NCBI GenBank assembly: GCA_030616365.1
Contig: JAUWXM010000001.1
Location: forward strand, 1 to 52,362
Length of the DNA stretch: 52,362 nt
DNA from: a bacterium
GTDB lineage: Bacteria; UBP18; UBA7526
Reading direction: 5' to 3'
Below the pieces are notes generated by a model. That model saw only the letters and a program-made list of their open reading frames with translations, had not been told where the DNA came from and did not search any database. Shown here in pieces: positions 13,588 through 51,406 of the stretch (position 1 is the first letter of the stretch; every line of letters starts with the position of its first letter). The translations under genes and the position numbers were made by a program.

Positions 13588-14143
13588 ACTCATACTCATC
13601 TTGAGTATGCTATTGCTGGCCACTTCCCTTTTGGCCCAGGATGAGGATGTTACCATTATTATTGGAGAGAGAAAGGCTCTCCAGGATGAGGGAGAGGAGG
13701 ATTTTCAGCTAATCCTCCAACCGGAAATAAATATTGAGCCGGAAATAAACATCGAGTGGAAAACAAATATCGAATCCCCCCAGTTAGAGATCTCAAAGGA
13801 AATAAATAATCAGAAATTTTTCTTATCTTTATTACAGGATAAGAACCCCTGGAACCGAGCAGAGGCAGCAAAAGCCCTGGGGGAGATAGGCAGCCAGGAG
13901 GCAGTCCCTTTTCTAGGTAAGATTTTGAAGAAGGATAAAAACCACTATGTGCGCTATAGGGTTGCCTGGGCCCTGGGAGAGATTGGAGGCAAGGAATCCC
14001 TCGTTACTTTAAAAAAAGCTCTTAAGAGGGAAAAGGATCGGCAGGTAAAGGAAATGATTGAAAAGGGTATAAAAAAGATAGAATCTGGCCCCTTTATCAG
14101 CCCCGAGGCACACTACCAGAATTTCTTAAGGAGGAAGAGATGA
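13559..14143 (+). CDS. Exported HEAT-repeat protein
   Basis: Signal peptide RLILILSMLLLATSLLAQ. Two PBS-lyase-type HEAT repeats (RAEAAKALGEIGSQEAVPFL; YRVAWALGEIGGKESLVTL). Overlaps both neighbours. Confidence 0.6.
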   Translation: MRYTSILKNRLILILSMLLLATSLLAQDEDVTIIIGERKALQDEGEEDFQLILQPEINIEPEINIEWKTNIESPQLEISKEINNQKFFLSLLQDKNPWNRAEAAKALGEIGSQEAVPFLGKILKKDKNHYVRYRVAWALGEIGGKESLVTLKKALKREKDRQVKEMIEKGIKKIESGPFISPEAHYQNFLRRKR

Positions 14144-16218
14144 GAATACATCTGAGATGGATAATGGGCGGTTTAACGGTCCTTTTAATCCTGGGAATGG
14201 TAGGAGGTATTCTCCTTGCCCAGGAGGAAGAGGCCTATTCACCTGAAGAAGAGGCCGCCTATTCACCAGAGGAGGTCATCCCGGTTGTGGAACCCGTGGT
14301 TCCGGTTCCCGCCAGGCCAACCAATGCTGTTCAGAATATTGAGGTGGTAGATTTACCGGAGAAGGTGAGAATCATCATCCATACCACCCAGCCGGCAGAG
14401 TATATTATCGGTAAGCTCTATAAGCCAAAGATGCTCTATATCGATATCTTAAACTCGGTGAACGACCTCCCCAGAAAAAGGTTCCGGGTGAAGAAGGGAC
14501 CAGTAAAGAGGATAAGATCCAGCCAGTACCATGTCCTTCCCACAGAGATTTCAAGGATTGTGATAGACCTTGATAAGTGGGTGAAGCATGAGGTAGCGAA
14601 AGAAGGGAATAAGTTATACTTAGAGTTCTATAAACCAGAGGTCTTAATGGCCAAGGCCCCACCAGAGGAGAAGGCCCCTCCCGAGGAAGAGAAGGTCCCC
14701 CCTGAAGAAGAGGAGAAGGCTCCCCCTCCTGGGGAAAGGTTAATCAGCCTCTCTTTTACTGATGCTCCTATGTCTGCGGTATTGAACTTCCTGGCCGAGA
14801 TGAGTGGCTACAATATCGTGGCCAGCGCTGAAGTAATTGAGGGAACGGTGACCATAAACCTGAAGGATGTTCCGGTCATGACCGCTCTGGATATCATACT
14901 GAAGACCAAGGATCTGTGGTATACCGAGGAGAAGAATATCATCATGGTTCTGACCATGACCGAGTTCCTGGAGAGCATCAAGGCCAAGGCAGAACTCACC
15001 AAGATCTATCCCCTGCAGCATGCCATTGCTGAGGATTTGGCCCAGACCCTGAACGAGGTCCTGGGAGGAGCGGTGAAAAGGGAAATTTCCCCAAAAATCA
15101 AAACCGTATATGTCGATACCCCTCACGCAATAGAGGCCATGAAGTCGGTTTCCTTCACGGGGAAGACCTTTGTCATTCCGGAGAAAAGGACCAACTCCCT
15201 CATCATCACTACCGATACTCCCTCCAACTTTATCATGCTTGAGATGCTCATTAAGAAACTCGATACCCCCACCCTTCAGGTGCTAATCGAGACCCAGATC
15301 GCAGAAGTGAAATTAACCGACCAGTTTAAATTTGGAATAACCTGGCTCTGGAGGAAGATGGGCATTGAGCCCGCCCTTGATGCCCAAGGCATTATGAGGT
15401 TCGATGACGCCGAAACTATGCTCTCTGAGGTCGAGGGGATGACATTCACGGGAACCAGAAGGATGTATGATCCCGCGACTGGAGAATGGATTAATGTTTA
15501 CTTCGAGGACAAACCCTATCCAATGAAGACAATTAGCCCCCTAACCACGGAGAGCATGGCGGGTTATAATTTTCTCATTCTCAACAGGCACCTGGATGTG
15601 CTACTTCAGCTGACAAGAAGCATCTCAGATCTTGATATTGTCTCCAATCCCAAGATTGTGACCGCCAATCACATCGGAGGTCATATCTTTGTCGGCGAAA
15701 GGATCCCCATTATATACGGTACCGGTAGAGGTCAGTGGACCTGGAAGTGGGAGGAGGTGGGAGTGACCCTCGATGTCACCCCTCACATCAACGACCAGGG
15801 GGAGACCACCCTGGAAACAAGGACCCACGTGAGTGAGCTTGGAGAGTATCGTACTCTTTATGATGTCCCCTCCATCATTACCCGAACGGTGTCTACCAAG
15901 GTAGTGGTGCCCAGTGGCTATACCCTGATCATCGGAGGGATGATGAGGAATAAGGTAACCGTAGGCAGAACCGGGATCCCGGGACTGATGAGAATCCCCC
16001 TCCTTAAGTATCTCTTCAGCAGCAAGACAGAAGATAAGGAAAAGGTGGAGTATATCTTCTTCCTTACCCCGCGGATCATAATGGCGGGAAGGGAGGTAAG
16101 ACCAGAAGATATCCCAGCGATGAGCGAGGCACCTACCCGATTAGAATCCTCTCCTCCCGCCGAGGTGAGGGAGATTAAACCCATTAAGGAGAAAGAGAAA
16201 AGCAAAAAGAGGAAGTAA
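14140..16218 (+). CDS. pilQ: Type IV pilus secretin PilQ with an N-terminal AMIN domain
   Basis: AMIN domain (VQNIEVVDLPEKVRIIIHT...SRIVIDLDKW...KLYLEFY). N0/STN domain (ISLSFTDAPMSAVLNFLAEMSGYNIV). Secretin core (VSNPKIVTANHIGGHIFVG...GVTLDVTPHINDQG...GIPGLMRIPLLKYLF). Confidence 0.9.
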   Translation: MRIHLRWIMGGLTVLLILGMVGGILLAQEEEAYSPEEEAAYSPEEVIPVVEPVVPVPARPTNAVQNIEVVDLPEKVRIIIHTTQPAEYIIGKLYKPKMLYIDILNSVNDLPRKRFRVKKGPVKRIRSSQYHVLPTEISRIVIDLDKWVKHEVAKEGNKLYLEFYKPEVLMAKAPPEEKAPPEEEKVPPEEEEKAPPPGERLISLSFTDAPMSAVLNFLAEMSGYNIVASAEVIEGTVTINLKDVPVMTALDIILKTKDLWYTEEKNIIMVLTMTEFLESIKAKAELTKIYPLQHAIAEDLAQTLNEVLGGAVKREISPKIKTVYVDTPHAIEAMKSVSFTGKTFVIPEKRTNSLIITTDTPSNFIMLEMLIKKLDTPTLQVLIETQIAEVKLTDQFKFGITWLWRKMGIEPALDAQGIMRFDDAETMLSEVEGMTFTGTRRMYDPATGEWINVYFEDKPYPMKTISPLTTESMAGYNFLILNRHLDVLLQLTRSISDLDIVSNPKIVTANHIGGHIFVGERIPIIYGTGRGQWTWKWEEVGVTLDVTPHINDQGETTLETRTHVSELGEYRTLYDVPSIITRTVSTKVVVPSGYTLIIGGMMRNKVTVGRTGIPGLMRIPLLKYLFSSKTEDKEKVEYIFFLTPRIIMAGREVRPEDIPAMSEAPTRLESSPPAEVREIKPIKEKEKSKKRK

Positions 16219-18867: not shown

Positions 18868-20493
18868 ATGATTCGCTTTGAGAAGATAATCCCCCTTATC
18901 CAGAAGTTTATCAGTGATCTTTTACTCCGGGGAGCAGTGAGATTAAGTTATGCTAAAATCAGCACCTACAGTCAGTGCCCCTTAAAGTATAAGTACCAGT
19001 ATATTGAGAAAAGACCCACCAAACCCAGTCCTTACTTAGACTTTGGCTCCACCATCCATAATACCCTAAGGGATTATCACAGAGACTTTGACCCTAAGCA
19101 AGCTAAGTTAGAGGGTCTGATGGCTGCTTATCAGAGGAACTGGATTGCTAAGGCCTATAATCAGGATAAAGAGGAAGAAGAGGCCTTCAGGGAACGCGGT
19201 AGACGCATCCTGGAGGCCTATTATGAGAAGGCCAAGGTAGACCCTAATCAAATCTTATACCTTGAGGAGTTCTTTCGGGTGAAGATCGGGGATTATGAAC
19301 TGGTGGGGAAGATAGACAGAATAGATAGGCTCCCTGATGGGGGATGGGAGATTATCGATTATAAGACTTCCCCTAAGGTCAAGGATGAGAGTGAATTGGA
19401 GAGCCCCCTCCATCCCACTGAGGTCCAGGAGACCCTGCAGCTCGATATCTATTATATTGCCTGCCAGGAGAACTGGAGGAGGGAACCGAAGAGGCTCTCT
19501 ATCTACTACCTTGCTGCCCAGGAGAACGGTCAATATCGACCGCGCAAGGTAAGCGTCTCCCGTAGCGGGGGAGAGGCCCCAAGAATAAAAGCCCTTAAAC
19601 GGGCCATCCACAATATCGCCCAGGGCATCCAGAAGGAGGACTTCTCGCCCAAGATCGGCCCCCTCTGTGGCTGGTGCGATTATAAAGAGCTCTGCCCGGA
19701 GTTCAAGGAGATCCCGGATGCTAAGGAGAGGTTGCGCCTCAGTTACTCCAAGATGAGTATGTTCCAGAGATGCCCCGCTCAGTATAAGGCGGTCTATATC
19801 GATAAGCTTCCCATGAAGCCCAAGTTCTTCTTTTCCTTTGGCTCCAGCATCCATGCTACTTTTGAGGAGTTCTACGATTATGATGGTCTCTTCACCACAC
19901 CCTCCCTGCGCTACCTCTTGAAACTCTATAATAAGCACTGGATCCCGGTCGGTTATCGGGATAAGAAAGAGGAGGAGAGGTACTATCAGGATGGGCTGAA
20001 GATGATGAAGGATTACTACCAGAAATTCATCAAGAAAGGCTTCCAGCGAGCCAGGTATTTAGAGAAGTACTTTGAGTTACCTATTGGGCAGAAAGCCATT
20101 ATGAGCGGTTATATGGACCGGGTGGACGAACTTCCCGATGGTAGCCACATATTAATCGATTACAAGACCGAGCCCCGCGAGCCTACCCAGGAGGACTTGG
20201 ATAACGACCTCCAGTTTACCACCTACTACTGGGCGGCCCCCATTGTCCTGGGCTTCACCTTCGATCATTTATACTTCGATTACCTGAGGTTTGGCAAGAG
20301 ATTCGAGACCAAAAGAACCCAGGAGGATATGGAGCGGCTCATCATTACTGTGGACCAGGCAGCAGAGGATATCCGACTGGCTACAGAACTGAATGATTTT
20401 CCCAGAAAGATGAATAAATACTGCGTAAGCTGCGACTTAGAGTGCCCCTACCAGGAAGAAGCAATAAAGATATACGGAGACTTAGAGGTCTAA
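18868..20493 (+). CDS. Tandem double PD-(D/E)XK (RecB/Cas4/AddB-type) nuclease, each half with a 4-Cys cluster
   Basis: Half 1: QCPLKYKY, GKIDRIDRLPDGGWEIIDYKTS, LQLDIYY, CGWCDYKELC. Half 2: RCPAQYKA, GYMDRVDELPDGSHILIDYKTE, LQFTTYY, CVSCDLEC. Confidence 0.8.
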   Translation: MIRFEKIIPLIQKFISDLLLRGAVRLSYAKISTYSQCPLKYKYQYIEKRPTKPSPYLDFGSTIHNTLRDYHRDFDPKQAKLEGLMAAYQRNWIAKAYNQDKEEEEAFRERGRRILEAYYEKAKVDPNQILYLEEFFRVKIGDYELVGKIDRIDRLPDGGWEIIDYKTSPKVKDESELESPLHPTEVQETLQLDIYYIACQENWRREPKRLSIYYLAAQENGQYRPRKVSVSRSGGEAPRIKALKRAIHNIAQGIQKEDFSPKIGPLCGWCDYKELCPEFKEIPDAKERLRLSYSKMSMFQRCPAQYKAVYIDKLPMKPKFFFSFGSSIHATFEEFYDYDGLFTTPSLRYLLKLYNKHWIPVGYRDKKEEERYYQDGLKMMKDYYQKFIKKGFQRARYLEKYFELPIGQKAIMSGYMDRVDELPDGSHILIDYKTEPREPTQEDLDNDLQFTTYYWAAPIVLGFTFDHLYFDYLRFGKRFETKRTQEDMERLIITVDQAAEDIRLATELNDFPRKMNKYCVSCDLECPYQEEAIKIYGDLEV

Positions 20494-20584
20494 AGGAGAA
20501 TAACGCAGAAACGCTGAAGGAGTAGAAGCGCAGAGGCGCCAAAATAAGAAGGGGTTCTGTTTTCTCTGCGTTTTTCAGTTCCAT

Positions 20585-20611
20585 TTTGCGTTTCGGCGGT
20601 TGCAAGGGAGG
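20585..20611 (+). promoter_or_regulatory. Conserved SD-fused box, ttttgcgtttcggcggttgcaagggagg
   Basis: Same box as at 26611-26632, 28953-28983 and 36722-36749, with a degenerate copy at 50077-50095. It ends in the Shine-Dalgarno sequence, 9 nt before ATG 20621. Confidence 0.6.
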
Positions 20612-20620
20612 ATAGAGAAG

Positions 20621-20788
20621 ATGAGAACCATGGAGCGCCGGGATATTCTGCGTCTCTTGCTAGTAACTTTCTTGGTCGGTTTTGTAGTATTAATCGTGGC
20701 CAAATTCAAGAGGGACTTTGCTTACGATATAAAGAGCAACCTGCGCAGCAACCGCAACTACTATCCTGCAGTCCAGGTGGAGAAATAA
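20621..20788 (+). CDS. Small single-TM protein (55 aa), unknown function
   Basis: MRTMERRDILRLLLVTFLVGFVVLIVAKFKRD... follows the conserved box. The ORF-track start at TTG 20600 lies inside the box. Confidence 0.45.
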   Translation: MRTMERRDILRLLLVTFLVGFVVLIVAKFKRDFAYDIKSNLRSNRNYYPAVQVEK

Positions 20789-20882
20789 GAACCTGCGCTA
20801 CGCGCAGAACCTTGTTTCTTCGTTAACACTCAGAAATAAGAAAGCCTTTCGCTATCGCTCAAGAACCTTGTTTTGCTTATTG
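20782..20882 (+). repeat. Two tandem copies of the AATAAGAAAGCC-hairpin-AGAACCTTGTT element
   Basis: Copy a is 20782-20824 (hairpin ctgcgc-tac-gcgcag). Copy b is 20833-20882. Copy a supplies the TAA stop of the upstream small ORF. Confidence 0.75.
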
Positions 20883-21028
20883 AAGTTCCGATACCTCAAA
20901 ATAGATTTAGAGTAATAGTGATCAGTGATCGGTAATCGGTCAGTTAAAAAAATTAACTATTCAACATTTTAACTCATTAACTTGTTAACTTATCAACTTG
21001 TTAACTATCCGAGCAAAGCGAGGGTGAG

Positions 21029-24000
21029 ATGGTTGAGGCCTATGGAGCAAAGCCAATTGAGGAGAAACCAACTGGTAAGGGGATGGGATTAAAGGAGAAG
21101 AAAATAATCCTCTGCTGCTGGATCTTCATCTTAGGGGTGGCCTTGGCCACGGCCTTCTTCCATGGGGTTAGTTTTCGGGGCCGGGAGATTATTCCTCCCG
21201 AATCCTTCCTCATCCTCCCCCAATATCTCCCCATGGCCTGGGTTGCGGTTGTTCTTCTGGCGGCTCTGACCGCCTTTTTCTTTTATAGGAAGATGAGATG
21301 GGCCACTCATTCCTTACTCATCTTAGCCCTCCTCTTGAGTATCGCTTGCTATACCAATAAGGTAGATACCTCCCCTCCCAATCATCTAGTCCGTTTCCTG
21401 AGCAAGGATTTTGGGGAGAAGAGGGTGGTCATAGGAAAGATCTGGAAAGAGCCCGAGGTAAGGTATCATACCGATCCGGAAACAGGGAAGATGGAGCAGA
21501 AAGATACCCGAATCCTCATACGACCCACTAAGATTCAACTCGAACCCCCGGATGGCCCTTTCTATAAAGTCAAGAGAGGAGATATCTTAGTAAAGATCGT
21601 TCCCATGATTGGATGGGAAATCTATAACAGGCTATCCTCATCCGAGGCCCTGGGCTATACCGTCAAGTTACACGCTCCGCTACTTGAACCGCAACCCGCT
21701 ACCAATCCGGGAACCTTTGACTATAAAAAATACCTGACCAATAGCGGGGTCTATGCCACTTCCCCGCTCACCTATCCCAGTAGATGGGCCCCTCCCATTG
21801 AGATTCTGAAGGAGACCAGGGGAAGACTCTGGGTAGAGACCGCCCTGTTTATCAAGAAGAGGATGCTTACGCTCATTAAGAAGAGCATGCCCTATCCAGA
21901 GAGTGCCTTCCTGGGTGGGGTTACTCTGGGTCTGCGCCATGGACTGATGAAGCTCCATTATCAAGGTCATCCCTTAAGTGTGGAGAATGCCTTCAAGTGG
22001 TCAGGGACCTTCCATGTCTTGGCGGTCTCTGGCCTTCACGTAACGGTAATCGCTGGCCTCCTCTTCGGCCTCTCCCTTCTTCTGATCAAGTCAAGAGAGA
22101 AAGCGGCGGCCCTCACCCTCTTCTTCATGATCTTTTTCGCCCTGATGATATTCACCGCCCTTACCGGGGCCCGTCCCTCCACCATGCGCGCCTTCATCAT
22201 GGTCTCCATCGCCCTCCTTCTCTGGGCAATGGGTATTGGTCTGCGCTACTCCATCCTTCTATCCATCCCCATTGCGGGCACCGCCATCCTTCTCCTCAAC
22301 CCCCTGGTCCTGACCGAGGCCAGTTTCACCCTCTCCTTCGGTGCTGTTTTATCCTTAGGGCTGATTACCGGCCCCACTATGAAGTATTTAAGGCGGAAGG
22401 ACCTGAAGGGTCTACCTTCCGTAGCTCTTTTAGCTCTTGCCCTTATCTTTCCCATTATCTCCTATTTCCATAAAGAGGCCTTCAAAGAACTCTACACTAC
22501 CGGACAGTTCATCATCCTCGCTTTCCTACTTCTGGTACTCTCCTACGTCATTCAGAGACGCTATCGCTTTGGAAGGTTCCGGAGGGTAGAGAATATTATT
22601 ACCTATCGTGAGAAGCAGGGGGGCTTTAAGAGCATAGAGGAACTTGCTCAGGTTCCGGGCATAGATAGAGGAACTTCCTTAAGACTCAAGAAAAAGATGG
22701 AGAAGCCGGGGAAAGATATTAATACCATCTCTCCCTACGCCTTAGAGAATTTAATGCCGGGAGGACCCCTCTTCAGGTTTGGCCTGGGCAGTGGGAACCC
22801 CTTCTTTCTTGCCCGGTGGTTCTTTGCTTTCCTCTGTGCCCAGGTAGCCATTAACTTAGGGATGATGCTCCCCCTCTCCCTCTACTACTTCAAGCACATT
22901 CCCTATGCCGGTCCCTATGCCAACTTCATGGCTATTCCTCTGATTACCACTATCATCCCTTTAGGGATAATGGCGGGCATCCTGGGGATGATTATCCCTG
23001 GCTTGGGTCAGTACTTAGCCTTACTCATCAATGCGGGCAACTGGCTTCTGGTTAGATTCTTCCTCTGGCTTTCCTATACCGCCACCAATATCTTCCGCTA
23101 TCCTTTTGAGAAAACCCCTACGGTCTATCAGTTAGCTGGCTATTTCTCCCTCCTTCTGGTCTATGTTTATTTCGATGACCTGCATGGTCGTCTGGTCCGT
23201 GGGAGATTTAAGGAGAAGATGCGTGCCGGGATAATCATGGGCCTCGTTGCCCTCCTCTTCTTCATCGGTTCTCTATCCGCCCAGAGAAAGCCTCTTCTGA
23301 AGGTCCTCTATCTCTCCGTGGGATATGGGGACTCCATCTTAATCCAGACCCCCCAGGGAAAGAATATCCTCATTGATGGGGGATACCCCAGCCCCGACTG
23401 GGAGACCATCGCCCCGGTCTTAGTGAAGGAGGGGATTAAGAGATTGGATACCGTATTACTCACCAATCCCAGCCTGGAACATATGGGAGGATTGATCTCC
23501 GTCATTAAGAACTTTGAGGTCAACCAATTCATCGATAGCCTGGGTCCTGACCGGGTGAGCCCAGATATCTCCTATGATGAATTCCTCACCCTCTTAAATG
23601 AGAAGTATTTTTTGGAGAATAGAGATAAAGAATATGTCCGAGAGACCTATGAGACCTATCTAAAACTCTTAAGAGTCCTGAAGGAGAGGATGGTCATCCA
23701 TAAGAAGGGGAGCTATGGGACAATCATCGCTAAAGAGAGATTCCGGGGTAAGGATTTAGAGTTCTATATCCTGAACCCCATGGAACCTAAGATCGATTAT
23801 GCCTACTCCAACCTCTCGGCCAATTCCATAGTGACCAGGCTCATCTATGGTAATAACACCTTTTTATTTACCTCCAACCTTGGCCCAGAAGGAGAAGCGA
23901 GATTAGTGGCTTCCGGGAATGTCTTAAGAGGCGCCATTTTACAGATTCCCGCTCATGGGAACATCCATTCCAGCACCTCTGGTTTCTTAAGGGCGGTCAA

Positions 24001-24259
24001 TCCCCGGGTAGCCGTCCTCTGCTATGGAAGTGCCAAGTATTCTGGCCGGGATAAGAGAGAGGCCACACGACTCAAGAAGGAGATGCAACAGACCTTAGCC
24101 AAGTATCGAGGAGAGGTGGAGAGGTGCTACACTACAGACCGCTACTCTGAGAGTGCGGATATGGCGGTCATTATCACCTCCAATGGGAGAGAATATAGTA
24201 TAGAGACTATGCGTGGTCGCTCAAGGCATGAGAGACCATTAGTTATGAGGGCGCGCTAA
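21029..24259 (+). CDS. comEC: ComEC/Rec2 paralogue 1 (1076 aa): DUF4131-like OB region, competence membrane domain with an inserted ComEA-like HhH module, and an MBL domain with a degenerate metal motif
   Basis: FHVLAVSGLHVTVIAGLLFG competence motif. Insert IITYREKQGGFKSIEELAQVPGIDRGTSLRLKKKM (about 22586-22700). MBL region VGYGDS...LLTNPSLEHMGG...IPAHGNIHSS. Confidence 0.85.
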   Translation: MVEAYGAKPIEEKPTGKGMGLKEKKIILCCWIFILGVALATAFFHGVSFRGREIIPPESFLILPQYLPMAWVAVVLLAALTAFFFYRKMRWATHSLLILALLLSIACYTNKVDTSPPNHLVRFLSKDFGEKRVVIGKIWKEPEVRYHTDPETGKMEQKDTRILIRPTKIQLEPPDGPFYKVKRGDILVKIVPMIGWEIYNRLSSSEALGYTVKLHAPLLEPQPATNPGTFDYKKYLTNSGVYATSPLTYPSRWAPPIEILKETRGRLWVETALFIKKRMLTLIKKSMPYPESAFLGGVTLGLRHGLMKLHYQGHPLSVENAFKWSGTFHVLAVSGLHVTVIAGLLFGLSLLLIKSREKAAALTLFFMIFFALMIFTALTGARPSTMRAFIMVSIALLLWAMGIGLRYSILLSIPIAGTAILLLNPLVLTEASFTLSFGAVLSLGLITGPTMKYLRRKDLKGLPSVALLALALIFPIISYFHKEAFKELYTTGQFIILAFLLLVLSYVIQRRYRFGRFRRVENIITYREKQGGFKSIEELAQVPGIDRGTSLRLKKKMEKPGKDINTISPYALENLMPGGPLFRFGLGSGNPFFLARWFFAFLCAQVAINLGMMLPLSLYYFKHIPYAGPYANFMAIPLITTIIPLGIMAGILGMIIPGLGQYLALLINAGNWLLVRFFLWLSYTATNIFRYPFEKTPTVYQLAGYFSLLLVYVYFDDLHGRLVRGRFKEKMRAGIIMGLVALLFFIGSLSAQRKPLLKVLYLSVGYGDSILIQTPQGKNILIDGGYPSPDWETIAPVLVKEGIKRLDTVLLTNPSLEHMGGLISVIKNFEVNQFIDSLGPDRVSPDISYDEFLTLLNEKYFLENRDKEYVRETYETYLKLLRVLKERMVIHKKGSYGTIIAKERFRGKDLEFYILNPMEPKIDYAYSNLSANSIVTRLIYGNNTFLFTSNLGPEGEARLVASGNVLRGAILQIPAHGNIHSSTSGFLRAVNPRVAVLCYGSAKYSGRDKREATRLKKEMQQTLAKYRGEVERCYTTDRYSESADMAVIITSNGREYSIETMRGRSRHERPLVMRAR

Positions 24260-24275
24260 AGCTTGCCCCCTCTAC

Positions 24276-24327
24276 TAAGGAAGCCCGAATAACAAGGTTC
24301 TCCGATGAAATCGGAGGCTTCCTTATT
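24276..24327 (-). repeat. Reverse-orientation copy of the AATAAGRAAGCC-hairpin-AGAACCTTGTT element
   Basis: The reverse complement reads aataaggaagcc-tccgatttcatcgga-gaaccttgttattcg. An outer stem taaggaagcc/ggcttcctta is also possible. Confidence 0.7.
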
Positions 24328-24345
24328 ATGAAAGGTAGTTAAAAA

Positions 24346-24765
24346 ATGAATTTTATCACCCTTATGAGTTTTGGCATGGTGCTGGTCATCCTCTTCTTAT
24401 TCCTTGAGAAGAGGTTATGGGAAAAGGAGCTGGAGCAGAAAAAGATTCTCTCCACCAAAAAAGGGGAGAAGGTCCAGTCCTCTGGTGAGGTGAGGATTGC
24501 TGACTGGCTCTTCGAGCATAATATTGAGTATGAATATGATCAGGAAAAAGAAATTGCTTCTGAGTTCATCCGTCCCGACTTCTATCTTCCCAGAGAGAAT
24601 GTGGTCATCGAATACTGGGGAATCATGACCGACCCCAGTTATCGACGACAGAGGGAAAGGAAAGAAAACCTATATCGCATGGAAGGAATGACTCTCATCT
24701 CCATCGAGAATATAGGGAGTATTGACAGTATCCTTTCTTCCAACCTTGAAAAAGAAGGAGTGTAA
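24346..24765 (+). CDS. Membrane-anchored small protein with a PD-(D/E)XK-like (restriction-endonuclease-fold) domain
   Basis: N-terminal TM FITLMSFGMVLVILFLFL. SSGEVRIADWL...YEYDQ...IRPDFYLPRENVVIEYWG...LYRMEGMTLISIE resembles the E...PDF...hhE.xG pattern of Vsr/DUF559/helicase-IV-N-type nucleases. Assignment is from motif memory only. Confidence 0.4.
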   Translation: MNFITLMSFGMVLVILFLFLEKRLWEKELEQKKILSTKKGEKVQSSGEVRIADWLFEHNIEYEYDQEKEIASEFIRPDFYLPRENVVIEYWGIMTDPSYRRQRERKENLYRMEGMTLISIENIGSIDSILSSNLEKEGV

Positions 24766-24770
24766 AGTAA

Positions 24771-25319
24771 ATGTCCCTTTCTTCTGGCCAGAGACTAATA
24801 GTCATTATCCTCTTCCTGGCCTTTCTCTCTGGGGGAGGGGTTCTGGGCTATAAAATATCACAGGAGTATCCGGAATTTGCCCCAGCCGCTGAGATAGAGA
24901 AGCCTATTATTAAAGAAGCGGTTCCATCCCGACCAATAGTAGTGACAGAGAAGACTCCCATTGAGAAATTAGCTAAAAAGGAGAAAAAAAAACTTAAAGC
25001 CGCCTTAGCGATAAATATCAATACCGCCTCTTCAAAAGAATTGCAGAAGCTATCCTATGTCGGTCCCAAAACGGCAGAGAAGATCATCGCTGGTCGACCC
25101 TACGGAAGGAAAGAAGATATCATGAGGGTTAGTGGTATTTCCGAGGGGCGCTACCAGCAGATAAAGGATTACATCACTGTGAGCGGCAAGGGCTTAGAGG
25201 ATTATAAACCTCCCACAGAAAAGGCTAAGGTCCCAGCGGAAGAAAAGAAACTAAAAATCGTTAAAGTAGATACCGATGGGGACGGGATTCTCGATACCTG
25301 GATTACCAAACCCCAGTAA
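24771..25319 (+). CDS. ComEA-type HhH DNA-binding protein, membrane anchored, with a C-terminal DxDxDG motif
   Basis: TM LIVIILFLAFLSGGGVLGY. ININTASSKELQKLSYVGPKTAEKIIAGRPYGRKEDIMRVSGISEGRYQQIKDYITV. C-terminal VDTDGDGILD. Confidence 0.8.
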   Translation: MSLSSGQRLIVIILFLAFLSGGGVLGYKISQEYPEFAPAAEIEKPIIKEAVPSRPIVVTEKTPIEKLAKKEKKKLKAALAININTASSKELQKLSYVGPKTAEKIIAGRPYGRKEDIMRVSGISEGRYQQIKDYITVSGKGLEDYKPPTEKAKVPAEEKKLKIVKVDTDGDGILDTWITKPQ

Positions 25320-30670: not shown

Positions 30671-33052
30671 ATCAACGCGAATCTAAAACAGGAATATTCG
30701 CGAATAAGATACCCGCTTGTCGCTATTATCCTCGTCTATATCTCAGGAATCATCCTGGGGCATCTATTAGACATCTCCCTCCCTTCTCTACTCTCCATTC
30801 TCGCTCTCCTTTTAATCCTTTTCTTCCTTGCTTTCTGGAGGAAGAAACCTACCATCTCCACTCTTCTCTTGGGTATTCTGCTTCTTCTCGCCAGCCTCCT
30901 CTACCATGACATTACTCTCGAGCGTATCACCAGAGGAGAGATAACCCCCTTTCTCAATAAAGGCTGGGTTGAGATTTTAGGTACTATCGATCGTCTGCCC
31001 GAGATTAAAAAAGATAGAATCCATTTAATCGTTAAGACAGAGAAGATATCGTTCAAGAAGAAAGAATTCTCAGTCAGAAGCAGAATCCGGGTATCTCTCC
31101 CGAAAGGTAAGACCTCCCTTAATTATGGAGACAGGCTCAGGATCAGGGGAGAATTAATCTCTCCTCCTGGAGCCAGGAATCCCGGAGGCTTCAGTTACCG
31201 GAATTACTTAGCAACCCAGAAGATATCTGCTTTAGTAAATCTGGTCGTTGATGAGCAGATAGAAAATATTGGAAAAGCAAGGGTCAATCCCTTCTTCAGG
31301 ATTGCTTTCTATCTCCGGAAGCGCTTGGTTGAGACCATTGACCATACCCTCCCTTCCCGCGAAGGCTCGGTATTAAAGGGTATCCTTTTAGGAGAAAGAG
31401 GAGAGCTCCCTTCCACCCTTCGCCAGGCATTCATTGCTACTGGAGTGGCTCATGTCTTAGCAGTCTCTGGCCTCCACGTTGGCCTCATCGTGATCTTCTT
31501 CCATTATGGTCTCTTTCGTCTGTTTCGTCTACCCAACAAGGGAAGTGCTCTCCTTACCCTCTTCATCATTATTCTCTACTGCTTTATGACCGGTTGTCGG
31601 CCCCCTGTGGTGCGCGCCACGATTATGTTCGGTCTTTTTCTGCTTGCCTCTTGCCTGGGACGAAAAAGAGAGGTCTATACTACCTTAGCCCTGGCTGGTC
31701 TGGTCATCCTCTTAATCAATCCCCTTACCCTGTTCGACCTTAGATTCCAGCTCTCTTTTGCTGCCGTGCTTTCCATTCTATATCTCTATCCCAGGATCTG
31801 GTCCAGACTAAAGTTCCTCTCCTCCTATCCCGCAGGTTTGATAAGTGTCTCCCTTGCTGCCTGGGTAGGGGTAGTCCCCTTAGTTGCCTATCACTTCAAC
31901 TATTTTACTCCGGTAACCATCTTAGCCAATCTCTTTGTCATTCCTTTAGTTACCATTGTCGCCGCCTTAGGCTTTCTAGCCACCATCTGCTCCTTCTTTC
32001 TTCCCTTGGCCCAGCTCTTCTCTTCCTCTAACTGGCTCTTTCTCACTATCCTAATAAAGGTCATCCATCTCTTCAGCCACTTTCCCGGAGCCGGGATAAG
32101 AGTTGTTACCCCTTCTCTTTCTTTCATTAGTATCTATTACTTAGGCATTGTCGGGCTAATAAATTTTAAACGTTCCCTTTTAATAAGAAAAGCAATCTCT
32201 ACGGGAGCCCTGTGCCTGATAGCCATCTTCGTCTGGGGAAATATCTTTGCCTCTCAAGATAAGTTACTGAAGGTTACTTTCTTAGATGTTGGTCAGGGGG
32301 ATTCAGCCTTCATCCAGTTCCCTGATAGAAAGAGTATGCTCATTGACGGAGGAGATGGTAGGCTTGATATTCTACCTTCTTATCTCTGGGATGAGAGAAT
32401 AAGGAGAATCGATTACTTAGTATTAACCCATCCCCATGCCGATCATGTGACCGGACTCATCAACGTTCTCTCCTATTTCAAGGTAGGCGAGGTCTGGGAC
32501 AGTGGTCAGGAATTTACTTCACCAGAATATGAGAAATTTTTGAGGATTATTGACGACAAAAAAATTGCCTACAAAATAGTCCGGGCGGGTCAGAGGCTAT
32601 CCATAATGCCTGGGGTGGGGATGGATATCCTCCATCCTCAAGAAAGATTCCTGAAGGGTGGCGGTTCAGAACCAAATAATAACTCCATAATAATAAGACT
32701 CCTCTATAAAAAGGTAAGCCTTCTCTTTACCGCTGATATTGAGAAAGAAGCAGAGGATCTTTTAGAGAGAAAATATGGTACTCAACTACATAGCACTATC
32801 CTTAAGGTTCCCCATCAAGGATCTAAGACCTCAAGCACTTTAAAATTTTTAGAGAAAGTTTCCCCAGAATGTGCTATAATCAGCGTTGGTGCCCGGAATC
32901 CCTTCGGTCATCCCAATCCCGCAGTCCTCAAGAGATACCAGAAGATGAAGATTAAGACATATCGAACGGATGAGCGTGGGGCAATAATCATAACCACAGA
33001 CGGGGAGAAATACTGGGTGAGGACCATCTCCCAGACCTGGAGGAATAGATGA
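30671..33052 (+). CDS. comEC: ComEC/Rec2 paralogue 2 (OB region + competence domain + intact MBL domain); start codon unresolved
   Basis: GVAHVLAVSGLHVG. LKVTFLDVGQGDS...LVLTHPHADHVTG...VPHQGSKTSS...FGHP. The ORF track starts at TTG 30869, but the frame is open from 30593. Positions 30710-30868 encode two further hydrophobic helices. ATC 30671 lies 6 nt after AAGGAG. Confidence 0.85.
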   Translation: MNANLKQEYSRIRYPLVAIILVYISGIILGHLLDISLPSLLSILALLLILFFLAFWRKKPTISTLLLGILLLLASLLYHDITLERITRGEITPFLNKGWVEILGTIDRLPEIKKDRIHLIVKTEKISFKKKEFSVRSRIRVSLPKGKTSLNYGDRLRIRGELISPPGARNPGGFSYRNYLATQKISALVNLVVDEQIENIGKARVNPFFRIAFYLRKRLVETIDHTLPSREGSVLKGILLGERGELPSTLRQAFIATGVAHVLAVSGLHVGLIVIFFHYGLFRLFRLPNKGSALLTLFIIILYCFMTGCRPPVVRATIMFGLFLLASCLGRKREVYTTLALAGLVILLINPLTLFDLRFQLSFAAVLSILYLYPRIWSRLKFLSSYPAGLISVSLAAWVGVVPLVAYHFNYFTPVTILANLFVIPLVTIVAALGFLATICSFFLPLAQLFSSSNWLFLTILIKVIHLFSHFPGAGIRVVTPSLSFISIYYLGIVGLINFKRSLLIRKAISTGALCLIAIFVWGNIFASQDKLLKVTFLDVGQGDSAFIQFPDRKSMLIDGGDGRLDILPSYLWDERIRRIDYLVLTHPHADHVTGLINVLSYFKVGEVWDSGQEFTSPEYEKFLRIIDDKKIAYKIVRAGQRLSIMPGVGMDILHPQERFLKGGGSEPNNNSIIIRLLYKKVSLLFTADIEKEAEDLLERKYGTQLHSTILKVPHQGSKTSSTLKFLEKVSPECAIISVGARNPFGHPNPAVLKRYQKMKIKTYRTDERGAIIITTDGEKYWVRTISQTWRNR

Positions 33053-33624: not shown

Positions 33625-34143
33625 ATGAGCATTTTAACCAGAGGAGAGATTCTGAAGGAGATTAAAAAGGGAAGAATAAAGATCGAGCCCTTCGACGAGT
33701 CAAAGGTAGGGCCAGGCTCCGTTGATCTTCACCTGGGGAATGAGTTCCGGGTATTCAAGAAGGTGCATAATGTAGTTCATGTATCAGAGAAAACTTCCCA
33801 TGAGCAGGTAACAGAGGTAATCAAGGTAAAGAAATACTTTGTCTTGATGCCTGGGGAGACGATACTGGGGATAACAAAAGAGAAAATTACCCTACCCAGT
33901 GACATCTGTGGCTGGCTTGAGGGAAGATCGAGATTCGCCAGATTTGGTCTTCTGGTCCACATCTCGGCCAGTTTCATGCATCCCGGGATCGCCAATCACC
34001 AGGTCCTGGAGATCTCAAATTTTAGCCCCATGCCCCTGGCCATCTATCCTGGAACACCCATCTGCCAGTTCATCTTTCAGAGAACGATTGGCAAGGCAAA
34101 ATATCACGGGAAATATAAGGCTCAGGATGAGACGAACTTTTAG
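33625..34143 (+). CDS. dcd: dCTP deaminase
   Basis: GSVDLHLGNEFRVF...ILGITKEKITLPSDICGWLEGRSRFARFGLLVH...HQVLEISN...PICQFIF. SD gaggagg before ATG 33625. Confidence 0.85.
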   Translation: MSILTRGEILKEIKKGRIKIEPFDESKVGPGSVDLHLGNEFRVFKKVHNVVHVSEKTSHEQVTEVIKVKKYFVLMPGETILGITKEKITLPSDICGWLEGRSRFARFGLLVHISASFMHPGIANHQVLEISNFSPMPLAIYPGTPICQFIFQRTIGKAKYHGKYKAQDETNF

Positions 34144-35083
34144 CGCCTCTTCCTTTGATGCTAACTTACCCTTTAGATTTGAGGGAAAAGTCCACAGCAT
34201 CTTTTCTAAGGCCCTCAATATTAAAATAGAACAAAATGAACTTATCTCTATCGTAGCAGCGGAAAAGTTAAATGGTCCCAATCGTATTCTCCTTCAACTT
34301 CCCGAAGATGAAGATTTCTTTTCCTTTGGAATAAAAAAGGAAGCGAGAACAGTAGGAACTACTCAGAAGATAAGTATTGATAACGGAAATTTCCTCATCT
34401 CTTTAAGAGAAGCGAAGAAATGGTCGCCTAAAATTGAGATAAAAGGAAAGACATCAAGTGCTCGGGTAAGAGACAACCTTACGTTTCTGAGCAAAAGCGA
34501 AGAAAGAGACAACTTGTTTGGCTCATTTCTCCAAAAAGATTTTTCAACCAAACAAGAAAGAAATAAGAAAGCCCCCCCGATAACTCGGGGAGAACCTTGT
34601 TTTCTCACTTCGTTCGAAAATAACATTTCTCAGGAATTAAGAATCCGTATTCAAGAATTAACTGGATCCATTAAAGAAAGAGATCCTTCCAAAATTTCAA
34701 AAAAGGTCAAGAGGCTCATCGGCTTTGGAGAAGGCCTCACCCCTTCTGGCGACGATTTTTTAGTGGGTCTTATCGTCTCTCTTTACTTCTTAAATGATTC
34801 AAGATTTGAACACCTCTCAAAGAAGATAAAAAAGGTTGTTGAGTTAGGAAAGAAAAGGACAACTTTCCTGAGTGAGAAGTTTTTAGAGTACGCCTGTCAG
34901 GGTAGATTCCCAGAAACCGTCCTCGATCTATTAGAGACAATTTTTTCTGGGGATAGCGTGGGGGTAAAAAAAGCGGCCAGAAGATGTTTAGACTTTGGCG
35001 CCACTTCAGGAAGAGATACCCTCTTAGGGGTAGTAAGAGGCTTAGATTTAATAGTCCAAGGTCCATTGTTCACCGATCACTGA
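34127..35083 (+). CDS. DUF2877 (YlbF-like) protein
   Basis: LIGFGEGLTPSGDDFLVGLIV motif, and position next to FdrA. The ORF-track extension to 33899 overlaps dcd out of frame. Confidence 0.65.
   Translation: MRRTFSASSFDANLPFRFEGKVHSIFSKALNIKIEQNELISIVAAEKLNGPNRILLQLPEDEDFFSFGIKKEARTVGTTQKISIDNGNFLISLREAKKWSPKIEIKGKTSSARVRDNLTFLSKSEERDNLFGSFLQKDFSTKQERNKKAPPITRGEPCFLTSFENNISQELRIRIQELTGSIKERDPSKISKKVKRLIGFGEGLTPSGDDFLVGLIVSLYFLNDSRFEHLSKKIKKVVELGKKRTTFLSEKFLEYACQGRFPETVLDLLETIFSGDSVGVKKAARRCLDFGATSGRDTLLGVVRGLDLIVQGPLFTDH
34560..34616 (+). repeat. In-frame intragenic copy of the AATAAGAAAGCC-hairpin-AGAACCTTGTT element
   Basis: gaaataagaaagcc-ccccga-taac-tcgggg-agaaccttgttttctcacttcgttcg, translated as RNKKAPPITRGEPCFLTSF. 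Confidence 0.7.
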
Positions 35084-39267: not shown

Positions 39268-40518
39268 ATGACCAGGAGGGGAAAGATTATAAATAGGGCG
39301 AATGGGAAAGCGGTCAAGAGGATGATCGATTCCCAGCCGATACTGGTAGATATTAAGCAGGCCAAGGATGTCATTCCGGAAATGACCAAGAGGACTATCC
39401 TTCATGCCGGACCTCCTATAGAATGGAAGAGGATGTGCGGACCGGTAAGGGGAGCCATAATGGGTGCCCTAATCTATGAGGGATTGGCAAGAAACCCCGA
39501 AGAGGCGAAAAAATTAGCGGCATCTGGGAAAATAAAATTTTCTCCCTGCCACCACCATAATGCGGTGGGCCCTATGGCCGGAGTAGTCTCAGCCTCTATG
39601 TATGTCTTTGTAGTCAAGAACGAGAAATTTGGAAATTATGCCTACTGCACCTTGAATGAGGGATTAGGAAAGGTATTGAGGTTTGGGGCCTATAGTGAAG
39701 AGGTAATCGAGAGGCTTAGGTGGATGGAAAAGGTCCTTGCTCCGGGCTTGAAGAAGGCGGTTAAGAAATCGGGAGGGATAAATATCAAGAACCTGACCGC
39801 TCAAGCACTTCAGATGGGTGACGAGTGCCATAATAGAAATGTTGCTGCAACATCATTATTTATAAAGGAGATTACTCCTTACTTCCTCAAGACCGATCTG
39901 GATAAGAAAATAATAAGAGAGATAATTGAGTTTATCTCGGGGAATGTTCACTTCTTTCTGAATATCTCCATGGCGGCCTGTAAGGCAACCGCAGATACTA
40001 TCCTTGGTTTTAAGAATAGTTCCTTAGTGAGCGCCATGGCCAGGAATGGGACAGAGATTGGAATAAGGGTGGCAGGATTAGGAAAGAAGTGGTTTACGGC
40101 AAAGGCCGGAATGCCCAAGGGGTTATACTTTGCGGGATATAGTGAAAAGGACGCCAATCCAGACTTAGGAGATTCCACAATATCAGAGGTCGCAGGCATC
40201 GGGGGATTTGCTATGGCCTCTGCCCCGGCTATCGTTCAGTTCATCGGAGGAAGTCCTCAGGATGCCATAAAATACACCAAAGAGATGTATGAGATTACTA
40301 TTTCCCAACATAGCACTTATAAGATTCCTTCCCTTGACTTTATGGGGACTCCTATTGGTATCGATATCAGAAAGATAGTTGAGACCGGGATTACTCCGTT
40401 TATCAATACTGGAATTGCCCATAAGAGACCGGGCATCGGCCAGATAGGAGCTGGCATCCTGCGCGCCCCCATGAGCATCTTCGAAGAGGCCTTGGTTGCC
40501 TTAAGTTTACCCCGTTAG
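39268..40518 (+). CDS. DUF1116 (YlbE-like) protein
   Basis: ILHAGPPIEWKRMCGPVRGAIMGALIYEGLA...HHHNAVGPMAGV... The family normally accompanies FdrA and DUF2877. Confidence 0.7.
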   Translation: MTRRGKIINRANGKAVKRMIDSQPILVDIKQAKDVIPEMTKRTILHAGPPIEWKRMCGPVRGAIMGALIYEGLARNPEEAKKLAASGKIKFSPCHHHNAVGPMAGVVSASMYVFVVKNEKFGNYAYCTLNEGLGKVLRFGAYSEEVIERLRWMEKVLAPGLKKAVKKSGGINIKNLTAQALQMGDECHNRNVAATSLFIKEITPYFLKTDLDKKIIREIIEFISGNVHFFLNISMAACKATADTILGFKNSSLVSAMARNGTEIGIRVAGLGKKWFTAKAGMPKGLYFAGYSEKDANPDLGDSTISEVAGIGGFAMASAPAIVQFIGGSPQDAIKYTKEMYEITISQHSTYKIPSLDFMGTPIGIDIRKIVETGITPFINTGIAHKRPGIGQIGAGILRAPMSIFEEALVALSLPR

Positions 40519-40571
40519 AGATCCTCGTCAGAGACGAGGCAGACGCTTTAGGCGTCTTATCTCTAACGGGG
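40510..40571 (+). other. 62-nt three-way-junction palindromic element (copy 1) overlapping the stop codon
   Basis: Outer stem ccccgttagagat/atctctaacgggg. Inner hairpins cctcgtc-aga-gacgagg and agacgc-tttag-gcgtct. The TAG stop (40516-18) lies in the 5' arm. Confidence 0.8.
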
Positions 40572-40714
40572 CAGGGCATAATTTTCCTTTCTTTTCCGCT
40601 GAATTTGAAGTATAATGTTTATATTAAACGAGGCAAGCGAAGCGCGTCGTTATAATACTCGTTGTATTAGAAGGGGCAAGCGATGGGGCGTCTTCATACT
40701 TTTAGGGGAGACAA

Positions 40715-50099: not shown

Positions 50100-51353
50100 A
50101 TGGATATTGTTGCCTTGAAAGAAAAAACCATCTCTGAGTTGAGTGACGTGGCGAAGAAGATGAGGATTCCTGGAATAGGCAATTTGAGGAAGCAAGAGCT
50201 CATCTTCAAGATATTAGAGGCCCAGACGAAGAAGGAGGGTCTTTTATTTGGGGAAGGGGTCTTGGAGATCCTTCCCGACGGCTTCGGCTTCCTGCGTTCC
50301 CCCAATACTAACTACCTGCCCGGCCCAGATGACATCTACGTCTCTCCCTCTCAGATAAGGCGCTTCAGCCTCAGGAAAGGGGATACTGTCTCCGGCCAGA
50401 TTCGGCCCCCAAAAGAGAGTGAAAAGTTCTTCGCTTTACTTAAGGTTGAGGCAGTAAACTTTGAAAACCCAGAACTGGCTAAGGAGAAGATACTATTCGA
50501 TAACCTCACCCCCCTATACCCTAAGGAGAAGATTAGACTGGAGACGGGAGCCGATACTATCTCAGAGAGGGTCATGGACCTCTTAACTCCTATCGGGAAA
50601 GGTCAGAGGGGCCTAATCGTCTCTCCTCCCAGGGCAGGAAAGACCATTCTATTGCAGAAGACCGCTAATTCCATCACCACCAACCATCCAGAGATAATCT
50701 TGATTGTTCTCTTGGTTGGAGAAAGGCCAGAAGAGGTGACGGATATGGAGCGAAGCGTCAAAGGAGAGGTAGTCTCCTCCACCTTTGATGAACCGGCCAC
50801 CCGCCATGTCCAGGTGGCAGAGATGGTATTGGAGAAGGCCAAGAGGCTTGTGGAGTATAAGAAGGACGTGGTCATTCTCTTGGACTCTGTCACCAGGTTG
50901 GCCCGGGCATATAATACTATTTGCCCCCATTCGGGAAAGATACTGACTGGAGGGGTGGATGCCAATGCCTTACCCAAGCCTAAGAGGTTCTTTGGTTCGG
51001 CACGCAACATTGAAGAGGGTGGTTCCCTAACCATTCTGGCTACGGCGCTCATTGATACGGGAAGTAAGATGGATGAAGTAATCTTTGAGGAGTTCAAGGG
51101 AACGGGGAATATGGAACTGGTCCTCGATAGAAGGCTGGTGGATAAGAGGATATTTCCCGCCATTGATATCTCGCGAAGCGGGACGAGAAAAGAAGAACTC
51201 TTACTGGATAAGGAGGATTTGAACAAGGTCTGGGTCTTGAGGAAGGTATTGAGTCCGCTCGATGTTGTTGAGAAGATGGAACTCCTAATTGAAAGGCTGA
51301 AAAAGACTAAGACCAATAAGGAATTCTTAGCGTCCATGAATTCACCCCGTTAG
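50100..51353 (+). CDS. rho: Transcription termination factor Rho
   Basis: N-terminal [20 protein letters not shown], an RNA-binding domain (GFGFLRSP), Walker A ([12 protein letters not shown]), and a C-terminal [22 protein letters not shown]. Confidence 0.95.
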
Positions 51354-51406
51354 AAGTCCACACCGCTGGTGTGGCACCCGCCTGAGGCGGCTTACTTCTA
51401 ACGGGG
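51345..51406 (+). other. 62-nt three-way-junction palindromic element (copy 2) overlapping the rho stop codon
   Basis: Outer stem ccccgttagaagt/acttctaacgggg. Inner hairpins ccacac-cgctg-gtgtgg and ccgcc-tga-ggcgg. The TAG stop lies at 51351-53 in the 5' arm. Confidence 0.8.

Follow-up and report, generated by a model that had tools for sequence, protein, structure and literature searches.

Several kinds of short repeat are known to enter bacterial genes without breaking the reading frame. Rickettsia palindromic elements (RPEs) are short palindromic repeats that occur as several subfamilies, both between genes and in frame within housekeeping genes (Ogata et al. 2000, via PMC10969869 and PMC3733652), and intragenic repetitive extragenic palindromic (REP) sequences are known in several free-living species (PMC10969869, PMC3733652). 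The tag of RPEs is CGTC, while GTAG defines a larger REP superfamily; REPs and bacterial interspersed mosaic elements (BIMEs) are thought to be mobilised by REP-associated tyrosine transposases, or RAYTs (PMC3733652). [quoted passage not shown] Here we analyse a family of hairpin-bearing repeats in a stretch of 52,362 nucleotides (nt) from a bacterium of the lineage UBP18 (contig JAUWXM010000001.1, positions 1 to 52,362), which we call the window. One repeat, copy d, lies inside a gene of the AllH (DUF2877) family. It is very probable that copy d is a unit of a lineage-specific family of short, non-coding, selfish hairpin repeats of the REP/BIME/RPE kind. Our results support the view that these repeats have inserted in frame into AllH twice, and into other genes as well.

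We searched for copies using the pattern AATAAGRA-N8-38-AGAACCTTGTT, with 100 dinucleotide-preserving shuffles of the window as a control. There are exactly four matches in the window (copies a to d, Table 1); none of the 100 shuffles has a match, and none is expected by chance. An earlier note on this DNA had reported repeat copies at these same four sites, and the pattern finds no others in the window. The note had also stated that the stems differ between copies yet remain paired in three of the four, which is indeed the case (ctgcgc/gcgcag, ctccga/tcggag and ccccga/tcgggg); the stem of copy b is mismatched.

Units of the family fall into types A (82-86 nt), B (48-60 nt) and C (43 nt), which have modules and junctions in common. 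Type A units contain, in order, AATAAGRAAGCC, a variable hairpin, AGAACCTTGTTATTCGGGCTTYCTTA, GTAG, a second hairpin at the 3' end (AGGGGGCAAGCGAAGCGCGCCCT) and CAT. Type B units have the same 5' module as type A, followed by TTYTCRCTTYGYTCRAAAAT, and type C units begin with AATRAGCCAAGCAAGTTGTCTCTTT and continue with a 3' tail of the same kind as that of type B. Units are joined head to tail at an A/T-rich junction that is common to the types, reading ...TCAT/AATAAG... or ...RA/AATAAG... (the slash marks the boundary). The resulting arrays are of single or mixed type and mostly intergenic, and they often adjoin or provide stop codons. In the following, related loci are given L-numbers (e.g., L001 from HyVt-354, L031 from CSMAG_2709 and L004 from KR13) and AllH homologues are given P-numbers. 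Examples of arrays are those of L025, in which four type A units recur every 84 nt, and L022, with six mixed type B and C units.

The window contains eight units in total: three of type C (1-136), two of type B (20784-20891), one of type A and two in AllH. The earlier note had overlooked the three type C units and the second AllH insertion (34484-34525), and the reverse-oriented copy that it placed at 24276-24327 extends to a full 83-nt unit at 24245-24327. In this type A unit, an outer stem AAGGAAGCC/GGCTTCCTT surrounds CTCCGA/TCGGAG and is followed by GTAG and the 3' hairpin. Copy a starts with AAATAA, and this start carries the TAA at 20786-20788 that terminates the open reading frame (ORF) at 20600-20788, as had been claimed. 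Copy b has a hairpin of a common mismatched kind, TTTCGCTATCGCTCAAG, and the unit is degenerate in its 3' half. The family may also include two solitary hairpins similar to the 3' module of type A, although their profile matches are weak.

Table 1. Positions of the repeat units and associated features. Coordinates are those of the window unless a related locus is named; HMM, hidden Markov model.
Feature	Positions	Strand	Details
AllH/DUF2877 host gene, 318 aa	34127-35083	+	Pfam PF11392, E = 2.5e-27, residues 197-305
Type B insert in AllH (copy d), 57 nt, 19 codons, NKKAPPITRGEPCFLTSFE	34561-34617	+	nhmmer, type B, E = 1.6e-13
Type C unit in AllH, 42 nt, 14 codons, FLSKSEERDNLFGS	34484-34525	-	36 nt upstream of type B insert; type C HMM, E = 2.8e-14
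Pattern match, copy a	20784-20816	+	
Pattern match, copy b	20835-20872	+	
Pattern match, copy c	24291-24327	-	
Pattern match, copy d	34562-34601	+	
Type C tandem array, 3 units, period 43 nt	1-136	+	nhmmer, type C, E ~1e-15 each; truncated by contig end
Copy a, short type B, hairpin CTGCGC-TAC-GCGCAG	20784-20834	+	nhmmer, E = 1.4e-08; DNA fold z = -3.2
Copy b, type B, in tandem with copy a	20835-20891	+	nhmmer, E = 7.5e-13; orthologue in L004
Type A unit (copy c), 83 nt	24245-24327	-	nhmmer, type A, E = 1.4e-23; fold -21.4 kcal/mol, z = -6.0
Two solitary hairpins like the type A 3' module (...GAGGCAAGCGAAGCGCGTCG..., ...GGGGCAAGCGATGGGGCGTC...), possible members	40623-40698	+	nhmmer, type A model positions 52-85, E = 0.02 and 0.07
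Second palindromic family, window	40510-40571, 51345-51406		
Second palindromic family, related loci	L004 4372-4433, L018 2883-2958, L041 2335-2410, L046 219-286		

The AllH gene lies in an AllH-AllF operon, between a dCTP deaminase gene upstream and an FdrA/AllF-like gene downstream. This synteny is kept in L030 and L031, both of which have AllG further downstream. The encoded protein has the GxGxGLTPSGDD motif, in which G201, G203, T205, P206, G208 and D209 are invariant. Copy d was correctly described as lying within ORF 34127-35083 and keeping the frame open, and it is translated as ...RNKKAPPITRGEPCFLTSFEN.... However, it had been said to lie just before GFGEGLTPSGDD, whereas it is actually about 35 residues ahead (insert at residues 146-164, motif at 199-210). 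Its hairpin is CCCCGA-TAAC-TCGGGG, and its ends are ambiguous by about 5 nt, since AAATA is present at each of them.

Alignment of DUF2877 homologues, a check suggested in the earlier note, identifies the 19-codon segment as an insertion. Among 22 close homologues (51-84% identity over aligned columns), the segment of 19 residues is present in five, and the other 17 are shorter by exactly these residues. The insert-bearing homologues (P0001-P0004 and P0009) read NKK(A/T)(P/S)PITRG(E/K)PCF..., and they come from five independent assemblies belonging to different projects. The note had also envisaged that homologues from genomes without the family might carry the same segment; instead, the more distant homologues have unrelated sequence at this position, in a linker of variable length. 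Six loci aligned as DNA differ here by exactly 57 nt: L001 and L031 lack this stretch, and L005, L030 and L033 have it. The empty alleles read ...AAGAAAG^AAGTAGCAT (HyVt-354) and ...AAGAAAG^AAACAGCGT (CSMAG_2709), and the filled allele reads ...AAGAAAG(AAATAAGAAAGCC...CGTTCG)AAAATAGCAT, with the unit in parentheses. As a consensus, the empty site is GAAAG^AA(G/A)(T/C)AGC and the filled site GAAAG(AAATAAG...GTTCG)AAAATAGC. Both genomes with an empty AllH site bear units of the family elsewhere. The hairpin variant CCCCGATAACTCGGGG is common to the five filled alleles, each of which has substitutions of its own. Since hairpins otherwise vary greatly from copy to copy, a single insertion event is indicated; the sequences indicate that one 57-nt type B unit entered the AllH linker once, in an ancestor of the related populations.

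The alignment also indicates that a 42-nt type C unit was inserted 36 nt upstream of the type B unit, in the opposite orientation. The type C HMM used to detect it was built leaving out the AllH copy, and its match covers 34484-34528 on the minus strand. Read on that strand, the unit is gagAAATGAGCCAAACAAGTTGTCTCTTTCTTCGCTTTTGCTCAGAAAcg, with TTTCT at each side, so that it is in frame but reversed. Only the window has the insert in full. In L001, L031 and L033 its 5' half is retained and the gene is 36 nt shorter, with a 10-nt direct repeat, AAGAGACAAC, at the ends of the deletion, and L005 (from KR13) and L030 have no type C unit in AllH. The window's gene holds the native AGAGACAACCT, as that of KR13 does, beside the element's AGAGACAACTTG. 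Since the native sequence stays beside that of the element, the full copy is probably the older state and the short alleles probably arose by deletion between the repeats.

The lengths of both AllH inserts are multiples of three and neither contains a stop codon, so they should be read through, adding 19 and 14 residues. We modelled the protein with AlphaFold from an alignment of 82 sequences (mean predicted local distance difference test score, or pLDDT, 87.5; predicted template-modelling score 0.86). All blocks of the model exceed a pLDDT of 75 except at residues 121-160, where it is 45-65 and falls below 50 at 133-139, 141-143 and 151-160. The inserts occupy residues 120-133 (type C) and 146-164 (type B), between an N-terminal beta domain and the helical AllH domain. 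Structure prediction had been proposed as a test of whether the insert is a surface loop; both inserts fall in the sole low-confidence linker of an otherwise confident model. The model therefore suggests that the inserts are tolerated in a poorly ordered linker. Neither a sequence-profile search of the PDB nor Foldseek with the AllH model yielded an informative match, and the position of the inserts is taken from pLDDT and the alignment.

AllH is one of many genes that contain the family. In the related loci, 18 of the 71 units are inside ORFs and a further 5 overlap ORF ends. Across the relatives, units occur in frame in about 19 protein families, with intact frames and Pfam domains on both sides. 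In HyVt-354 (L025), MiaA contains four tandem units, amounting to 112 residues, in reversed orientation, and these split the IPPT domain. Pfam domains are likewise split in a lipid A acyltransferase, which has two units, in DnaA, with one unit inside DnaA_N, and in a GidB domain. MnmE and a HAD phosphatase are further in-frame hosts, as is a PilM-like protein, where the units are two of type B. When the encoded peptides were searched against 5.8 billion proteins, matches also came from AcpS, a NUDIX protein, an MBL-fold protein, DUF3793 and a chorismate-binding enzyme, as well as from single-copy inserts in MiaA and the acyltransferase. In the metagenome contigs, the hosts also include RsmG, an M54 peptidase, a PHP-domain protein and a class I/II aminotransferase, and DnaA recurs. 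The DnaA and acyltransferase inserts recur in independent contigs.

One hairpin variant of type A encodes the peptide ALPQSGKNL, which recurs in DnaA, AcpS, NUDIX, MBL-fold and LpxL-like proteins and in the M54 peptidase, and RsmG carries the near-identical ALPQGGKNL. Particular hairpin variants have thus spread to many unrelated genes. Type A units use at least three of the six reading frames in genes. In-gene type A units are all 84 nt long; of the 20 units outside genes, most are 82 nt long and only 3 have a length divisible by three. For DnaA, the matches listed are from distant phyla only and include no empty orthologue of the site; they are about 445 aa long, compared with 478 aa for the query, which fits 28 extra residues. 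The MiaA array has four units in L025 (2637-2973), with small differences between them, and one in an independent assembly (L076 3533-3623), the flanks being 99.97% identical. This difference in unit number reflects either a real polymorphism within an essential gene or assembly collapse.

Units at gene ends can likewise be compared with orthologous sites. The type A unit encodes the end of the ComEC-like ORF at 21029-24259, with its final four codons (MRAR) and its stop. At the corresponding gene end, KR13 has ...ATTAGTT/CTGAAAGGTAG... with no unit, and its protein ends in ...LKGS where the window's ends in ...MRAR. The empty site reads TTTCAG^AACTAAT and the filled site TTTCAT(AATAAGG...CCCTCAT)AACTAAT. 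These comparisons, like those in AllH, indicate that the units are insertions relative to the orthologous sequence. The verified insertions are each bounded by 5-7 nt of identity equal to the junction between tandem units, namely AAATA in AllH, TCATAA in ComEC and TCATAAT in MiaA. Upstream of the ComEC-like gene, the place taken in the window by a short type B unit is occupied in KR13 (L004) by one of type C. The adjacent ORF at 20600-20788 (62 residues, with a hydrophobic segment) is conserved in KR13, where its stop codon is TGA, from type C, instead of the window's TAA, from type B. At this one site, then, units are exchanged between close relatives. The type B unit of copy b is conserved at the same place in L004.

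Type A arrays were also observed at equivalent sites in different species: 3' of ribF (L007 5729-5958 and L015 4654-4806) and beside mreB (L003 2120-2449 and L006 7171-7420). The unit composition of such arrays differs, with subfamilies whose outer stems are AAAGATGCC or AAAGACGCC, so some arrays are old and have evolved in place. We considered a REPtron-like layout for the array-flanked gene of L003 and rejected it: the gene encodes a SurA-like chaperone, and the other array neighbours (MreB, MreC, RibF and similar) include no transposase.

To examine the structure of type A, we used an alignment of 23 sequences that includes two diverged subfamilies. The consensus has three helices, i.e., an outer stem, the variable hairpin within it, and the 3' hairpin. 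In these helices 95.3% of cells are paired, and 12 of the 23 pairs are altered on both sides. On four of five measures, none of 500 shuffles attained the observed value, and sliding the partners by 1-3 columns lowers pairing to 36-60%. The 3' hairpin, (G)AGGGGGC-AAGCGAA-GCGCGCCCT(C), has nine predicted pairs, six with compensatory changes. Covariation therefore backs the helices of type A: complementarity is retained while the sequence of the stems shifts. GTAG precedes the 3' hairpin in 18 of the 23 sequences, the other five having TTAG, TTAA or GTAA, and its final G is predicted to be paired; the tag is absent from types B and C. A conserved segment, GAACYTTGTTATTC, is unpaired. No significant fold was found for the type C units or for copy b. 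A small ORF on the reverse strand of type A (MRARFRLPPLLRKPE) was considered and is ruled out by 1-nt indels between units in this region.

The family seems to be confined to one group of bacteria. In a scan of one genome per GTDB species, the strict pattern was found in 28 loci, 27 of them from four related, unclassified metagenome-assembled genomes (MAGs): HyVt-354, CSMAG_2709, CSMAG_2758 and KR13_S3.mb.88. The remaining match, in L009 (Bacteroidia), is probably due to chance; it has a longer, unrelated spacer and a profile E-value of only 0.1-0.3. A metagenome scan gave 42 further contigs with the family, and a scan of viral contigs gave no copy. Searches of Rfam 15 gave no match at the gathering score for the window and none at E <= 1 for four array-bearing loci, ruling out a known RNA family as the identity of the repeat. 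DNA polymerase I of the window is 86-92% identical to proteins from bacterial MAGs; among named groups, the closest to it are Elusimicrobiota, at about 68%, and Omnitrophota, at about 55%. The host lineage is uncultured, near Elusimicrobiota, and comes from sediment and vent metagenomes.

Given these properties, we compared the family to the known systems. Like RPEs, it has no coding capacity of its own, occurs between genes and in frame in unrelated functional genes, adds peptides that are tolerated, and comprises subfamilies. However, its sequence appears unrelated to that of RPEs, and its units are 43-86 nt long rather than about 100-150 nt. The CGTC tag that helps to set RPEs apart is lacking, and type A has GTAG. 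Moreover, the family forms mixed tandem arrays, even in genes, and its host is an uncultured sediment lineage near Elusimicrobiota rather than an obligate intracellular alphaproteobacterium. Judging from the unit consensus, which has no CGTC-tagged palindrome, the family does not belong to the Rickettsia RPE families and only behaves alike. The likeness to GTAG REPs and BIMEs lies in the 3' module of type A, in which GTAG, in most copies, accompanies an imperfect, GC-rich palindrome of about 23 nt with a 3-nt tail. This hairpin falls within the definition of a GTAG REP palindrome (20-40 bp, with a stem of 5-13 bp). Both kinds of repeat occur in clusters or arrays, provide stop codons from their ends, have intragenic units and lack terminal inverted repeats. 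In contrast to bare palindromes of 20-40 bp, the units studied here are composite, and their arrays are head to tail, whereas BIMEs are head-to-head or tail-to-tail dimers. In addition, types B and C have no GTAG, and no RAYT gene was found in the sequence at hand, which falls short of whole genomes. As regards MITEs, the family resembles them in being small, non-autonomous stem-loops at A/T-rich sites that sometimes create in-frame fusions, and BOX is also modular. It differs in having no terminal inverted repeats and no related insertion sequence that we could find, and in being smaller. We found no description of the family, or of such elements in Elusimicrobiota, in the full-text literature. 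It is best filed with the REP/BIME/RPE kind, within which its composite units, head-to-tail mixed arrays and in-gene tandem arrays are unusual.

In-frame colonisation of genes by palindromic repeats, which is best documented in Rickettsia, is thereby extended to an uncultured lineage, with dnaA, miaA, mnmE and rsmG among the targets and with tandem arrays by which an enzyme gains as many as 112 residues. Because units provide stop codons, alter C-termini and add linker peptides, they may mislead gene models and the assembly of MAGs. The filled, half-deleted and empty alleles at one site provide material for studying how repeats enter and leave genes, and what proteins tolerate.

The family probably spreads by a process of copying and insertion that recognises the shape of the hairpin together with the fixed flanks, and that prefers A/T-rich targets resembling a unit junction. 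Such a preference would account for the arrays and also for the link with stop codons. The mobilising agent would most plausibly be a single-strand HUH/RAYT-type enzyme, as for GTAG-tagged REPs. We consider this type of enzyme the best candidate because the 3' hairpin of type A is GTAG-tagged, and RAYT cleaves at GTAG in E. coli REPs (PMC3733652). The tagged hairpin thus offers a testable lead to a RAYT-like mobiliser. An alternative, which we think unlikely, is that the unit types are cassettes of an undescribed mini-integration system. Under this hypothesis, hairpins would be recognised by their shape, as suggested by the freely varying stems between fixed flanks. Units would integrate and excise precisely at a TCAT/AAT or RA/AAT core, with no inverted repeats or duplications. 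The process would build mixed head-to-tail arrays, and within genes the 28-residue repeats would expand and contract (one or four in MiaA, one or two in the acyltransferase).

It is important to emphasize that several observations weigh against a family of mobile, selfish repeats. Current mobility is not demonstrated by the sequences, and many copies are old, because arrays sit at orthologous sites across species. The AllH type B copy is also old, being common to five populations with the same hairpin variant. The earlier note had described an RPE-like mobile element that is active in this genome; the in-frame insertion behaviour is well supported, but present activity goes beyond what the sequences show. 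The distribution of the AllH insert is patchy and requires losses or allele transfer. In a neighbour-joining tree the filled alleles are not monophyletic: the empty P0005 lies inside a filled clade (87% bootstrap), and the filled P0009 groups weakly with the empty P0006 and P0008 (51%). Given this scatter, at least one precise loss or transfer of an allele between populations is needed; the later patchiness of both inserts probably reflects deletion at short direct repeats or allele transfer. The genes beside arrays are housekeeping genes (SurA-like, MreB, MreC and RibF), and no transposase was found among these neighbours. A phmmer search of 1442 ORFs (429 kb) with an approximate IS608 TnpA query gave no match, though this is a weak test. 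There are no terminal inverted repeats when the 5' AATAAGRAAGCC is compared to the reverse complement of the 3' end (ATGAGGGCGCG in type A, ATTTTCGAAC in type B), so the unit is no classical MITE. The identities of 5-7 nt at the ends of insertions cannot prove target-site duplication, because they match the termini of the element. Mismatches in type A stems are divided about equally between G-T (12) and A-C (9) in the alignment, and this balance favours neither strand, nor RNA over DNA, for the hairpins. Finally, three of the five terminator-like hits in 20400-24800 lie in copies a and c, on both strands.

The last of these observations raises the question of whether the elements serve the host, as bidirectional intrinsic terminators, for example, or as stabilisers of mRNA 3' ends, in the manner of pneumococcal SPRITE or E. 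coli REPs, that are under selection between genes and whose in-gene copies are by-products. In the 5' module a GC-rich hairpin stands between an A-rich and a T-rich tract, many copies directly follow or provide stop codons, arrays persist at orthologous sites, and in about 11 of 17 loci flanked by co-directional genes the element has the orientation of the genes. Nonetheless, the number of terminator-like hits is that expected from shuffles (5 versus 5.0), the T-run is set off from the stem by AGAACC, and type C has no stable hairpin. Nor would a terminator need arrays of four to six units, and about a quarter of the copies are inside essential genes, in both orientations and several frames. 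We therefore regard a host-serving role as rather unlikely, and such a role would not in any case preclude mobility. Given the terminator-like scores of some hairpins, a secondary function for the host may nonetheless exist between genes. A related idea is that type A units are multi-copy genes for a structured small RNA, or are cis-acting RNAs, for which one could cite the three helices with compensatory changes, the unpaired GAACYTTGTTATTC and the fold z of -6. However, Rfam has no match even at E <= 1, units are found in both orientations and three ORF frames, the balanced mismatches give no strand, and copy number varies among close relatives, so this idea is very unlikely.

Other explanations concern the in-gene copies themselves. 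If the 19-residue segment were ancestral AllH coding sequence, its likeness to the repeat would be coincidental. Linker length does vary across the AllH family at this point, but 17 close homologues lack precisely this segment, its 57 nt have repeat-type ends, its match to the type B profile extends over the whole length, including the hairpin, and distant homologues differ; a coincidence is therefore almost inconceivable. In-gene copies might also be artefacts of metagenome assembly, produced by chimeric joins at repeats. Repeats can indeed be misassembled, and two assemblies with nearly identical flanks disagree on MiaA, with four units versus one. On the other hand, the AllH insert occurs in five independent assemblies, each with its own substitutions, and wherever a copy lies in a gene, the reading frame and the Pfam domain carry on correctly to either side of it, which makes artefacts extremely unlikely. 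Short hairpin repeats of the REP/BIME/RPE kind thus remain our preferred explanation.

A few further observations were made in the window and the related loci. In CSMAG_2709, a gene of 121 residues (23S_rRNA_IVP, PF05635) lies between the AllF-like gene and the next gene (L031 12446-12811 and L032 2616-2981). In the window, the ORF after the AllF-like gene starts 11 nt past the end of that gene, leaving no room for a 23S_rRNA_IVP gene, whose presence is a small accessory-gene polymorphism of the AllH operon. The window also has an unusually large set of DNA-uptake genes, with ComEC-like genes at 21029-24259 and 30869-33052 and a type IV pilus cluster (PilM at 7205-9049 and PilQ at 14140-16218). 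Several helix-hairpin-helix (ComEA-like) genes occur in the syntenic loci L030 and L031. A half-motif, (TTTA)CCCCGTTGGAGAT(A), is present singly at many sites, several of them near gene starts or ends (3614, 4819 on the minus strand and 46504; L003 174 and 344; L048; L068; L072), and may be a regulatory or terminator-associated motif of the lineage. Lastly, there is a second, unrelated palindromic family of about 62 nt, with a 13-bp outer stem, CCCCGTTAGARRT...AYYTCTAACGGGG, that encloses two inner hairpins (Table 1). These inner hairpins vary yet stay complementary, and the whole could form a three-way junction or a cruciform. With its fixed frame (CCCCGTTAGAGAT...ATCTCTAACGGGG) and two free inner stems, this second family has the design of the first; under the mini-integration hypothesis, this would hint at a mechanism that is lineage-wide.

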